A DNA stretch of 41,033 bases from a virus (taxonomy: Duplodnaviria; Heunggongvirae; Uroviricota; Caudoviricetes), in the IMG/VR virus record IMGVR_UViG_2541047701_000006, one strand, 5' to 3'. A program made the position numbers and the translations under genes. The notes under the pieces were generated by a model. The model was not told the origin of the DNA. It did no database searches and worked only from the letters and a program-made list of their open reading frames with translations. Positions 1 through 40,657 of the stretch are shown piece after piece (position 1 is the stretch's first letter; every line of letters starts with the position of its first letter).

Positions 1-462
1 ATGCTGGGTGATTGTTTCCCTCCTGATTTTAAGGCTAATTTTAGTCGTGAAAGAGGTATATCACCCGGTGATGTATTGTATCTTCATTGTGATTTTACGA
101 CCCCACCTAAAGTAAAATATATGGTGGTTGTTTGCTGTGAACCTCTTTTAGTTCTTCTAATAAATTCAGATATAAATGAATTTATTAAGAGAAACAATGA
201 TCTTATGGCTTGTCAGGTCGAAATTAATAGAGAGGACCATGATTTTCTTAAATGGGACTCATTTGTTAATTGCATTGAGGCTCATGCTGCTTTCGATCTT
301 GAAATTATTAAAGAGAAAATAGCCATCCAATATGGTGACGTGCTAAAAGGTCGCATTACAGATCATTGTATGAGACAAGTTCGATGTGCAGTTGAGATAT
401 CTAAAACTATGGTTAAACGGCATAAAAAACTGATACTCGCTGCTCTTCAACATTATGAATAA
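1..462 (+). CDS. Hypothetical protein, AT-rich orphan (cargo candidate)
   Basis: 153-aa ORF starting with ATG at nt 1; visibly lower GC than flanking phage genes; hairpin terminator directly downstream; no motif recognised. Confidence 0.45.
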   Translation: MLGDCFPPDFKANFSRERGISPGDVLYLHCDFTTPPKVKYMVVVCCEPLLVLLINSDINEFIKRNNDLMACQVEINREDHDFLKWDSFVNCIEAHAAFDLEIIKEKIAIQYGDVLKGRITDHCMRQVRCAVEISKTMVKRHKKLILAALQHYE

Positions 463-482
463 ACCCATCTTTGGATGGGTTT
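461..482. terminator. Hairpin between convergent genes (AAACCCATC-TTTG-GATGGGTTT)
   Basis: Perfect 9-bp inverted repeat with 4-nt loop immediately after the stop at 460-462; weak T-tract. Confidence 0.45.
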
Positions 483-495
483 ATTCATATTCTAT

Positions 496-768
496 TTAAA
501 TGAGCCTTTGTTTATGGGTTCTGACCCTTTCCCACTCAGCACGCCCTTCTTCTCGCCTTTTGTCTATGTATTCCGCAAGATCCTGAATATTGATGCAACG
601 TTTTGCTTTTTGTGATGTGCCGATGCGATATGTTGGAACGGGCAACTTACAAGCGTTTGCTTTTGCTTCTGCCGTGGCTGGACTCATGCCAAAGTACTTT
701 TGGCTAACTGCTGAGAGTTCAATGTTAGGGGTATTGAATTCAGCCATCAGTAAAAACAAGGTATTCAT
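496..768 (-). CDS. PrtN/AlpA-like small DNA-binding protein (possible excisionase or transcriptional activator)
   Basis: Translation MNTLFLLMAEF...KYFGMSPATAEAKA...LPVPTYRIG resembles the pyocin-activator/excisionase-like family from memory; GGAG 6 nt upstream of ATG at 768; track ORF extends to 795. Confidence 0.5.
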   Translation of the reverse strand: MNTLFLLMAEFNTPNIELSAVSQKYFGMSPATAEAKANACKLPVPTYRIGTSQKAKRCINIQDLAEYIDKRREEGRAEWERVRTHKQRLI

Positions 769-2668: not shown

Positions 2669-3160
2669 TCACTCTCCTTTGATGCGAATGCCAGTGGTAC
2701 TCATTCTCCTGATTTCCCAGAGCACACGAGGAACACCACCGTTTCCGATCGGATCGCGTTTACTCCGCAGGGCGACGCTTGATTCCGCCCAGTTTTTTCT
2801 TGGAGGAAGCTCTTTCACACGAACAAAACCAGCTGCGCGAAGAGATGCTCCTGATTCATCTGCCTGGGTGTACGTAATACAACGTTGATAACCCATAGCT
2901 TTTGCTGCCCGCCAGACAGCACCATAAAGCGCGCTGTTAGCGTTGCGTTCTCCTGTGGTACATGTGCGATTTACTTCAAGCGTTAATCCATCGTCCAAAT
3001 GTCGTGCAACAGGTCGACCAGCTGTCGCCACACCTATCAATTCTCCGGCATCATTTATCAGACCAATGCTGAATTTATGCCCAACAGGTGGTTTATTGTG
3101 TCGGTGATGTCTGGATATAAACGCCTTCGCAACACGAAGAGTAACCGGTGAAATTTGCAT
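2669..3160 (-). CDS. Hypothetical phage protein
   Basis: ORF ending IRIKGE; start set at MQISP (ATG at 3160) 2 nt after the upstream TGA, RBS AAGGAGAG inside the upstream gene; track ORF extends to 3199. Confidence 0.5.
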   Translation of the reverse strand: MQISPVTLRVAKAFISRHHRHNKPPVGHKFSIGLINDAGELIGVATAGRPVARHLDDGLTLEVNRTCTTGERNANSALYGAVWRAAKAMGYQRCITYTQADESGASLRAAGFVRVKELPPRKNWAESSVALRSKRDPIGNGGVPRVLWEIRRMSTTGIRIKGE

Positions 3161-3162
3161 TC

Positions 3163-3444
3163 TCACTCTCCTTTGATGCGAATGTTTACAGCCTGACAAG
3201 CCTCTTCGAGAACCCAGTCAACAGCGTCTTTCCATGCTCCGGTTTCGACTGGCGGATTTTCACGCTTAACCTGTTCATAGAAGCGCACCGCTTTAACCAA
3301 TCCTTCTGGTGTCAGTGGCACAGGCGGGGCAGTGAATAACGCCTGAATTTCATAGTTCGGCCTGTCGTTGCAGTCTTCTTTTGTCGGTACGTATTTCCAG
3401 TCACTGATTTCTTTAATCAGTTCTTTGTCGGTGAACGTTGTCAT
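3163..3444 (-). CDS. Hypothetical phage protein (shares N-terminal module with 1377-2393 gene)
   Basis: 93-aa ORF MTTFTDKELIKEI..., ends NIRIKGE; about 50 bp at its start is repeated at 2350-2405. Confidence 0.5.
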   Translation of the reverse strand: MTTFTDKELIKEISDWKYVPTKEDCNDRPNYEIQALFTAPPVPLTPEGLVKAVRFYEQVKRENPPVETGAWKDAVDWVLEEACQAVNIRIKGE

Positions 3445-3447
3445 GTG

Positions 3448-3735
3448 TTAGTCCTCATCCACTTCAACGCCATCTTTCAGCGTGATGCCGTGCCAATCAT
3501 CAGCCCAACTGGTTAGCCCTGGCGCATCAATGCTAGGCATATAGACGCTTGCAGTGTGGTAGCCCTTATCGTTATCAATGCTGGCAACGTGCTCGCCGTT
3601 GTATGCGCTCAGCGTGTCCAGGACGCTATAAAACTTTCCTCCGGCTGCCCTGAAATCCTTTACAGCCTTCACAAGGCGATTCCACGCTTTTTCCTGTTCT
3701 GGCGTCAGGTCGATTAATTCCTGCAAAGTTGCCAT
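3448..3735 (-). CDS. Hypothetical phage protein
   Basis: Start set at MATLQELIDL (ATG at 3735) using the same junction/RBS repeat; track ORF extends to 3897 overlapping the upstream gene. Confidence 0.5.
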   Translation of the reverse strand: MATLQELIDLTPEQEKAWNRLVKAVKDFRAAGGKFYSVLDTLSAYNGEHVASIDNDKGYHTASVYMPSIDAPGLTSWADDWHGITLKDGVEVDED

Positions 3736-3736
3736 A

Positions 3737-4300
3737 TCACTCTCCTTTGATGCGAATGCCAGCGGCGCGCTCGGCTTCACTTTGTTCCCAAAACCACTTG
3801 TGAAGCGCCATAAGTTTTTCGTCAATCGGTGCATATTTGCGATTAAAGTAGGCCTGAGCATCTTTCTCAGATTCGTCCGGTAATTCGCCTGGGCCAAACA
3901 GTGTGTTATAAATCCATGCCAGTCCGCTCTTAGCGTCGCCAGTTGCCTGCCATTCGATAATGGCAGCCTGCATGACCAGAATGTTTTTCCCGATTAATAG
4001 GTCCAGTTCTTTGTACCGGTTGCGGATGTATGCATTCTCGCTTTGTAATTCAGCGTTTCGCTTCTCTGCTGCTTCCAGCTCATCCAGCAGCGCCAAGACG
4101 GTGGCAGGATTGGCGGCGGCTATGAATCGTTTATTGGCGCGATTATCTGGTCCTGAGCATGATGCTATGTAGTAATTGGCGTTCAGTCCGGCATCGGCAA
4201 TTACTCCATGGTAGTCATCAGCACACCATTCGCCTGGTGTTGCATTTTCTGCCGCCAGTCGCAGAGACTGATAGTTAATCTCGCTCACTGGTTGCCTCAT
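3737..4300 (-). CDS. Ead/Ea22-like protein
   Basis: N-terminal INYQSLRLAAENATPGEW and central coiled coil resemble the Ea22-like family of lambdoid early-left regions; ends GIRIKGE. Confidence 0.55.
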   Translation of the reverse strand: MRQPVSEINYQSLRLAAENATPGEWCADDYHGVIADAGLNANYYIASCSGPDNRANKRFIAAANPATVLALLDELEAAEKRNAELQSENAYIRNRYKELDLLIGKNILVMQAAIIEWQATGDAKSGLAWIYNTLFGPGELPDESEKDAQAYFNRKYAPIDEKLMALHKWFWEQSEAERAAGIRIKGE

Positions 4301-38433: not shown

Positions 38434-39531
38434 TCAAGGGGTCTTATTTCTGCTCCTTTGGAGCTCTTCAAAACGATTATGTAAAGATTTCGGATACAGT
38501 TCGGTATATACCTGCCATAGCACGTTTAATGAACGATGCCCTGTAACCTGGGCTACTTCCTCAATACTAAAACCAGCCTCAAATAAGCGACTTGCCCCTT
38601 CTCTACGCAAATCATGGTATCGCAGATCCTTAATACCTAATTTGCTTCTTACCCTCTGAAATCCCGCAGTAACAGAAGTGCTGTTATATGGAAAAATGAA
38701 TTCCGATTTTTGGGGCTGTCGTTGGACGATATCCCAGGCTTCCCCAAGCAAGGCTACTTTCATGTGGTTGCCTTCCTTTTTGCGTGGATCTTTCCTGTCT
38801 CTTACGAGTATAGATTTTTGTTCCTGGTCGAGATCTTCCCATCGTAACCGGCATACTTCTCCGATTCGCATACAGGACCACACAGAAAATTTGAGGATAT
38901 CAACGAACGGAATTTTTGAGCATTTATGAGTAGATCGTTGTTGAAGGCCTTCAATGAGCATGTCCAGTTCATCAGATGCTGGTCTACGATTACGACGGTT
39001 TGATTTACCAATCAAACCAAGTTTAAGTAGATATGGACGAGCACTTTTCGCCGGGTTTGATGTGTAATTAATTCCGTATACAGGTTTGGCCGCATCCAGA
39101 ACACTGCCAAGATAACTAACATCGTGGCTGACTGTTGCTGGACCTGCGCCAGCGTTGTTTCTTAGCCTGCAATGTTCAATTACGTCATTTTCTGTCAGTT
39201 CAGATAGTTTGATCGCGGAGATGTCACTATCCATAAGCAGTTCCAGCACATATCTTTTAGTACGGCCTGCTTTACCTCCGGCATTTGGGTCATTTAAATA
39301 TTTGTGTAGTAAGTCACGGACTGTAAGTCCGTCAACTGCATTTGATGATGGAATGCCATATAGATCTAATTCCATCACTTTCTGTGTGCCCCATGTTTTG
39401 GCATGAGCATGTTTAGGGAATGTTTTGCTTTCCCTGTAAGTGATAACACCTTTTTCTTTGATAATCACATTACAGCGATAGCGTGGTGTGCCATCGGATT
39501 TTAGTCGTTTCTCTATGTTATAGTACGCCAT
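38434..39531 (-). CDS. Tyrosine integrase, dusA-associated
   Basis: C-terminal catalytic motifs (LRYHDLRREGASRL, TGHRS, Y near C-terminus); adjacent to and divergent from dusA. Confidence 0.85.
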   Translation of the reverse strand: MAYYNIEKRLKSDGTPRYRCNVIIKEKGVITYRESKTFPKHAHAKTWGTQKVMELDLYGIPSSNAVDGLTVRDLLHKYLNDPNAGGKAGRTKRYVLELLMDSDISAIKLSELTENDVIEHCRLRNNAGAGPATVSHDVSYLGSVLDAAKPVYGINYTSNPAKSARPYLLKLGLIGKSNRRNRRPASDELDMLIEGLQQRSTHKCSKIPFVDILKFSVWSCMRIGEVCRLRWEDLDQEQKSILVRDRKDPRKKEGNHMKVALLGEAWDIVQRQPQKSEFIFPYNSTSVTAGFQRVRSKLGIKDLRYHDLRREGASRLFEAGFSIEEVAQVTGHRSLNVLWQVYTELYPKSLHNRFEELQRSRNKTP

Positions 39532-39619: not shown

Positions 39620-40657
39620 ATGCACGATAATCATGAAACACAAAAAATTAATCAAACCAGCGTGATGCCTGAAAAAACTGGTGTTTACTGGAATTCTCGG
39701 TTTAGCATTGCTCCTATGCTTGACTGGACGGACAGACATTGCCGTTATTTCTTGCGTCTGCTTTCCCGCAATACGTTGTTGTATACCGAAATGGTGACCA
39801 CAGGGGCGATTATTCACGGTAAAGGTGATTACCTGGCGTACAGTGAAGAAGAACATCCGGTAGCGTTGCAACTCGGGGGTAGCGATCCGGCGGCGCTGGC
39901 ACAGTGTGCGAAGCTGGCAGAAGCGCGTGGATATGATGAGATCAACCTGAATGTCGGCTGCCCGTCTGACCGGGTGCAGAACGGCATGTTTGGTGCGTGT
40001 CTGATGGGTAATGCGCAGCTGGTTGCCGACTGCGTGAAAGCGATGCGCGATGTGGTGTCGATTCCGGTGACGGTGAAAACGCGTATTGGCATCGATGATC
40101 AGGACAGCTATGAATTTCTCTGCGATTTCATCAACACCGTTTCCGGCAAAGGTGAGTGTGAGATGTTCATCATCCACGCACGTAAAGCCTGGCTTTCTGG
40201 GTTAAGTCCGAAAGAAAACCGTGAGATCCCGCCTCTCGATTATCCGCGTGTGTATCAACTGAAGCGTGACTTTCCGCATCTGACGATGTCGATTAACGGT
40301 GGTATCAAGTCGCTGGAAGAAGCTAAAGCGCATTTGCAACATATGGATGGCGTGATGGTCGGGCGCGAGGCGTATCAGAATCCGGGTATTCTGGCGGCGG
40401 TAGACCGAGAGATTTTTGGTTCCTCGGATACCGATGCCGATCCGGTGGCGGTAGTGCGCGCCATGTATCCGTACATTGAGCGTGAACTCAGCCAGGGTAC
40501 GTATCTCGGCCATATTACCCGGCATATGCTGGGCTTGTTCCAGGGTATTCCTGGCGCGCGGCAGTGGCGGCGTTATTTAAGTGAAAATGCCCATAAAGCG
40601 GGTGCAGACATTAATGTGCTGGAACACGCGCTCAAACTGGTGGCGGATAAGCGTTAA
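39620..40657 (+). CDS. dusA: tRNA-dihydrouridine synthase A (host)
   Basis: FMN/TIM-barrel Dus motifs ([30 protein letters not shown]); pspG is its downstream neighbour. Confidence 0.9.

Follow-up and report, generated by a model that had tools for sequence, protein, structure and literature searches.

The stretch of DNA analysed here is 41,033 nucleotides of Caudoviricetes sequence (IMG/VR record IMGVR_UViG_2541047701_000006; called the window below), and its first gene is the subject of this work. The open reading frame (ORF) 1..462 on the plus strand starts with an ATG at nt 1, ends with a TAA at 460-462 and codes for a 153-aa product, which more than 1000 contigs of E. coli and Salmonella encode as a hypothetical protein. 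In E. coli LH85-a the gene directly upstream codes for a Panacea-domain protein, and we consider it likely that ORF 1..462 is panT, the toxin gene of a two-gene PanA-PanT type II toxin-antitoxin (TA) cassette of ~1.1 kb, placed as cargo next to attL, within a lambdoid dusA prophage.

The right end of the window settles its nature, because an ORF of the size of a tyrosine integrase is followed there by host dusA and pspG (Table 1): the window is a lambdoid prophage of E. coli inserted at the 5' end of dusA rather than the genome of a free phage, and a circular phage genome with the promoter of ORF 1..462 at its other end is therefore ruled out. With a GC content of 0.348 (0.229 at third codon positions), ORF 1..462 lies about 3 standard deviations (sd) below the window mean (0.508, sd 0.053, 462-nt windows along the 41 kb), and a single other patch of the window, at ~29.6-30.2 kb, is equally low. 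The gene is present in 46 of 5426 complete E. coli genomes, as against 741 for the neighbouring prtN. The last three codons are overlapped by a symmetric hairpin that folds at -23.0 kcal/mol on the plus strand and -22.1 on the minus strand (z about -6 against dinucleotide shuffles) and has T-rich sequence beyond it in both directions. This element is probably a bidirectional intrinsic terminator, belonging to the cassette and placed between panT and the convergent prtN, whose stop codon lies 7 nt past the stem. prtN itself, the final gene of the leftward early operon, lies outside the toxin system and borders the cargo slot on its conserved phage side. An initial annotation, made from the window sequence, had described an AT-rich ORF starting at nt 1, convergent with a PrtN-like gene and sharing a terminator with it, and had taken its foreign composition as a sign of cargo at a prophage end, with a conserved core phage gene named as a refutation; all the described features are present, and both the GC values and the genome counts agree with that view.

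A Panacea-domain gene upstream of the predicted toxin gene

The first 800 nt of the window are 100% identical to E. coli LH85-a and two other strains, and the LH85-a sequence (L001 coordinates) covers the DNA to the left of the window. Toward the ORF this DNA holds zur, a DUF2713 gene, a dusA remnant (attL), a conserved phage-end stretch, the Panacea gene, ORF 1..462 and prtN, in this order; attL is a displaced 105-nt pseudogene remnant of the dusA 5' end, and the Panacea gene lies ~200 nt inward of it. An in-frame TAG is located 15 codons upstream of the ATG, and therefore ORF 1..462 does not form the 3' part of a longer gene; a continuation upstream, which the initial annotation had named as a possible refutation, is ruled out. 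Leftward extension, also suggested there, yielded the partner gene: the upstream protein matches PF13274 (SocA_Panacea) with an E-value of 5.2e-20 and 72.9 bits (cutoff 25.7), and the panA DNA codes for KDGPVAS (aag gat ggg cct gta gca agc in L001), which contains GPV, the Panacea signature motif (PMC8832971). The panA product is 193 aa long in RefSeq and 175 aa long when counted from an in-frame ATG at L001 7468; this ATG is probably the true start, since the Panacea homologues of Klebsiella, Rahnella, Morganella and an uncultured island have 172-176 aa. Between the panA TGA and the toxin ATG there is a 5-nt gap without a clear Shine-Dalgarno sequence, an arrangement that could fit translational coupling and a low toxin output.

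With an upstream stop codon this close to the ATG, the promoter is outside the window, as had been predicted. Between attL and L001 7468 the coding strand has a lone promoter-like site, TTGACC-18 nt-TAAGAT (L001 7372-7401), whose -35 hexamer TTGACC closes a block common to other dusA prophages. As the sequences diverge immediately past this hexamer, each cargo cassette may supply its own -10 element to a common -35. Prophages with different cargo have in common ~110 nt of phage-end sequence that follow the attL core (L001 7274-7385).

The same two genes were found together in very different surroundings. A word-indexed search retrieved 41 clusters of toxin homologues (~153-157 aa, from Enterobacterales and Idiomarina, all without names), and an exhaustive profile search raised this to 1246 representative clusters at E<=1e-3, 621 of them at E<=1e-10, nearly all ~150 aa long and conserved over their full length. 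In the bacterial contexts examined a PF13274 gene lies directly upstream of the toxin homologue, overlapping it or within ~40 nt. In Serratia phage OS31 the homologue stands between the Q antiterminator plus methylase genes and the lysis genes, and the abutting upstream gene, a putative partner, codes for an unannotated protein of 178 aa. The pair was found in Idiomarina (toxin homologue 42% identical), in Morganella beside a dusA-type integrase, in an uncultured integrase/AlpA island with an additional ParE-HTH TA pair, in a P2-like prophage of Rahnella, flanked by the gpA replication gene and the portal gene, and in Klebsiella prophages either in the interval of the tape-measure and distal tail genes or within an Arc/antirepressor region of P22 type. 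Because the flanking genes differ completely among these contexts, the PanA and toxin genes move together through distant Gammaproteobacteria, in five or more different phage or island contexts. When 50,697 phage genomes were searched with the ORF, megablast gave no match, and the only tblastn match among phages was Serratia phage OS31. In the Rahnella prophage a gene with an AbiJ_NTD4 domain lies directly downstream of the pair (L008 5771-6688), so that two candidate defence modules adjoin.

This arrangement leaves very little room for a type III toxin of the ToxN/AbiQ/CptN kind, neutralised by a repetitive RNA antitoxin and with the Panacea gene as an incidental neighbour, a reading that we regard as highly improbable. 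No tandem repeats and no Rfam match were found between attL and prtN (L001 7000-8600), the sequence upstream of the toxin is the protein-coding panA, an RNA antitoxin array has no place before the toxin since the gap to panA is only 5 nt, and the adjacency to PanA is kept down to 42% identity; on these grounds the RNA antitoxin was rejected.

PanAT systems have been described before. The domain DUF4065 was named Panacea in a study that sorted PanA-associated toxins into 88 clusters, with nine validated pairs (Kurata et al. 2022, PNAS, PMC8832971), and because PanA-PanT complexes co-purify these systems are of type II (PMC8832971). Dataset S1 of that study lists the Photorhabdus heterorhabditis protein WP_054475897.1 as a T5 toxin paired with a standalone PanA whose gene is 3 nt away. 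Judged by sequence, the product of ORF 1..462 is a member of PanT cluster T5, since a protein 53% identical to it (P0033, E 9e-51) shares a 90% cluster with that listed toxin (P0192 in our set). The likeness extends to the whole locus: an antitoxin-first two-gene operon, a standalone ("noNTD") Panacea/DUF4065 protein, a few-nt gap or an overlap, and a toxin of ~150 aa annotated as hypothetical and without CDD or Pfam domain. The description of the gene as "orphan" and "isolated" in the initial annotation thus has to be abandoned, since it follows a gene for a Panacea-domain antitoxin in a predicted operon of two genes and belongs to a large family with a catalogued cluster (Kurata et al. 2022), whereas the accompanying guess of a toxin or defence gene was a good one. 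The same Panacea domain is present in the antitoxin of SocAB, the type VI TA system of Caulobacter crescentus. The NCBIfam SocA model matches PanA weakly (E 0.0028, 17 bits against an equivalog cutoff of 190), and SocAB differs in that SocA is a ClpXP adaptor for the degradation of SocB, a toxin that binds DnaN and has no relation to MazF.

The E. coli and Salmonella prophage member is not among the tested pairs, nor is it in the examined part of Dataset S1 (PMC8832971), and the exact E. coli accessions WP_000900143 and WP_001535325 do not occur in the examined part of the supplements of both Atkinson/Hauryliuk papers. The E. coli prophage member is a new one within a family of PanA-associated MazF-fold toxins that is already catalogued; the advance is incremental because the PanAT concept has already been published.

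Predicted fold and activity of the putative toxin

The initial annotation had recognised no domain in the 153-aa protein, which holds for the sequence libraries and fails for structure. Neither Pfam (E<=1) nor NCBIfam has a match, the best PHROGs model is phrog_29007 (E 0.009, function unknown), which is not convincing, PADLOC gave only a 12-bit match at chance level, and 62 diverse members of the family matched no relevant Pfam family. A profile search of PDB sequences returned chance matches (augmin, bungarotoxin) and no MazF. The AlphaFold2 model, built with 26 homologues, has a pLDDT of 90.3 and a pTM of 0.84, and the predicted fold is clearly that of MazF/Kid/CcdB, an SH3-like barrel. The best Foldseek match in the PDB is MazF-mt3 with RNA (E 7.6e-4, probability 1.00), and the best matches in BFVD are phage PemK-like proteins and endoribonucleases. 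The published assignment of the T5 representative by HHpred, 99.5% to EndoA/MazF in Dataset S1 (PMC8832971), agrees independently with the fold found here.

Comparison with MazF, PemK and Kid (PF02452; PDB 4mzm, 6kys and 1m1f) points to several common elements, namely a GDV motif at the start of strand 1, a basic residue starting strand 2, a hydroxyl or amide residue ending strand 3 and a D-S pair before strand 5. The 153-aa protein differs in having ~40 extra residues, which in the predicted fold form a helix at the N-terminus (residues 2-17) and further helices at the C-terminus (121-148), and in having a Panacea antitoxin instead of MazE or PemI. In close homologues, down to ~41% identity, 17 residues are invariant (C30, F32, P35, K37, K39, P48, N55, S56, V73, H80, F82, L83, S87, C91, A94, H95 and I145), and K39, N55 and S87 are still invariant over the 62 diverse members.

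Within this framework PanT is probably an endoribonuclease, as the predicted structure suggests. The MazF-like PanTs of clusters T6 (P. moraviensis) and T25 (B. ruminantium), which have the same predicted fold and belong to other sequence clusters than the ORF product, form complexes with PanA, are neutralised by it and block translation specifically (PMC8832971), and standalone Panacea has been reported to neutralise its toxin directly (PMC10440598). By analogy with these standalone antitoxins, PanA would bind PanT directly and hold it inactive. Both genes would be co-transcribed from the TTGACC-18 nt-TAAGAT site at the conserved phage end, and transcription would end at hairpin 454-489. Once freed, PanT would act as a sequence-specific endoribonuclease and translation would stop, with Lys39 and Asn55/Ser56 in the roles of the catalytic Arg and Thr of MazF. 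The benefit for the prophage could be an abortive-infection-type defence against other phages, prophage stabilisation, or both.

Several observations weigh against this proposal. The catalytic residues of MazF are an Arg (R25 in B. subtilis, R29 in E. coli) and a Thr (T48 and T52, respectively). In an alignment to four MazF sequences, itself not significant by hhalign (P 0.017-0.039), these are replaced by Lys39 and Asn55-Ser56, and the beta1-beta2 loop is three residues shorter than in MazF. The Pfam PemK_toxin family (PF02452) was not matched by the 153-aa protein (E<=1) or by any of the 62 diverse members (E<=0.1). Of the T5 members a single one, that of Chryseobacterium bovis, has been tested; its toxicity in E. 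coli is in line with the proposal, but its PanA was itself toxic, so that neutralisation within T5 was not shown (PMC8832971). Several PanA-linked putative RNases of E. coli and Salmonella phage, from cluster T1, were non-toxic in the same study (PMC8832971). Lastly, the defence role is drawn solely from genomic context, because PADLOC has no model for either gene.

Two other readings of the pair were considered. In one of them the protein is a PanA-neutralised toxin with a MazF/CcdB fold that is not an RNase, being instead a CcdB-like poison of DNA gyrase or directed at another target. CcdB poisons have a CcdA partner and, at the C-terminus, conserved residues for gyrase binding. MazF outscores CcdB by every method used, which makes a CcdB-like mechanism less likely, and we consider this alternative unlikely as a whole. 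In the other, the pair would not arrest growth in E. coli at all, and a non-toxic or degenerate MazF-fold protein, for instance an RNA-binding regulator or an anti-defence factor, would travel with the Panacea protein. The non-canonical catalytic residues speak for it, and so does the finding that 8 of 25 tested PanT candidates were non-toxic in E. coli, including the "mRNase" candidates of E. coli MOD1 and Salmonella phage Emek (PMC8832971). However, such a passenger would hardly be expected to conserve 17 residues and its full length to this extent, nor to keep its pairing with PanA strictly in unrelated contexts, the C. bovis member is toxic, and natural frameshifts hit the toxin alone and leave panA intact. 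We therefore regard a non-toxic passenger as quite improbable.

A further reading, doubtful but somewhat more credible to us than these two, is that the PanA/T5 cassette is a true anti-phage abortive-infection system exchanged between slots, in which Panacea would sense a phage trigger and free a variant nuclease with a non-MazF target. In that case the Lys/Asn-Ser variant of the active site and the extra helices would redirect the target, for example to a specific tRNA or rRNA site. The defence idea comes from context, that is, the P2-like cargo region beside AbiJ and the positions that the cargo takes in prophages of lambdoid and siphovirus type. Under the preferred reading, what had been a hypothetical protein becomes a testable prediction, a PanA-neutralised toxin with a MazF fold. 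Since no T5 toxin is known to be neutralised by its PanA and the catalytic residues are not those of MazF, the native E. coli pair would be convenient for studying Panacea control of a MazF-fold toxin as well as lysogen defence.

The cargo slot of dusA prophages and other features of the window

The cassette begins near L001 7385 and ends at window nt 517 (~1.13 kb, GC 0.386). In most of the 741 genomes with prtN, similarity begins at window nt 518, inside the prtN 3' end, and therefore the C-terminal residues of PrtN differ between prophages with different cargo. Comparison of the occupied slots points to the attL-proximal position of dusA prophages as an exchange site for TA or candidate defence cassettes. 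In E. coli A20 the slot (L011 2221-3422) carries a different Panacea protein, 29% identical, together with ORFs of 128 and 57 aa, and the 128-aa ORF has no significant similarity to the toxin described here (E 0.013 over 20 residues); one cassette of the dusA slot is thus a second, unrelated PanA pair. In O157:H7 and O145:H28 (L012 and L013, 2519-3422) the slot carries unrelated hypothetical ORFs of 177 and 57 aa without Pfam match. This varied cargo gives the PanAT reading some indirect support.

Some carriers of the T5 cassette have lost the toxin. A +1 insertion of an A in the run GAGAAAATA, after ORF nt 315, shortens the toxin to 112 aa and leaves panA intact in E. coli AST240 (L015 1501-1965) and in the O166:H15 strains H18-H20 and H23, and shortened forms of 112-113 aa occur on at least 82 contigs. 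Such loss of the toxin with retention of the antitoxin is suggestive, being the way in which a TA module would be expected to decay.

Table 1. Positions of the features discussed (window coordinates unless L001, the E. coli LH85-a sequence, is given).
Feature	Coordinates	Strand	Remarks
panA	L001 7414/7468-7995		alternative starts; ends 5 nt before the toxin ATG
Symmetric hairpin	454-489	both	perfect 16-bp stem, 4-nt loop: TATGAATAAACCCATC-TTTG-GATGGGTTTATTCATA
Right edge of variable cassette	490..517		similarity to most related dusA prophages resumes at ~nt 518
PrtN-family gene (prtN)	496..768	-	Pfam PyocinActivator/PrtN PF11112, E=2.9e-23; convergent with ORF 1..462
Tyrosine-integrase-sized ORF	38434..39531	-	right end of the window
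dusA	39620..40657		beyond the integrase-sized ORF, then pspG

Three other features of the window were noted. The second AT-rich patch (29550-30260, with a minimum 462-nt GC of 0.333 at 29801) holds ORF 29663..30184 on the plus strand, coding for 173 aa, which is placed in the tail region between the long ORF 27730..29631 and ORF 30241..31614 and may be another inserted cargo gene. Additionally, near-identical direct repeats of 42-56 nt (2354-2409 and 3405-3460; 2656-2697, 3150-3191 and 3724-3765) sit at gene junctions of the leftward early operon, in the regions of start codons and ribosome-binding sites, which suggests duplicated or recombined ead/Ea22-like gene modules. Lastly, a 15-nt periodic repeat (TCAAAATCTGAC-like) is present in six overlapping copies at 9636-9758, within ORF 9348..10289, and these copies look like replication-origin iterons inside a lambda O-like gene.
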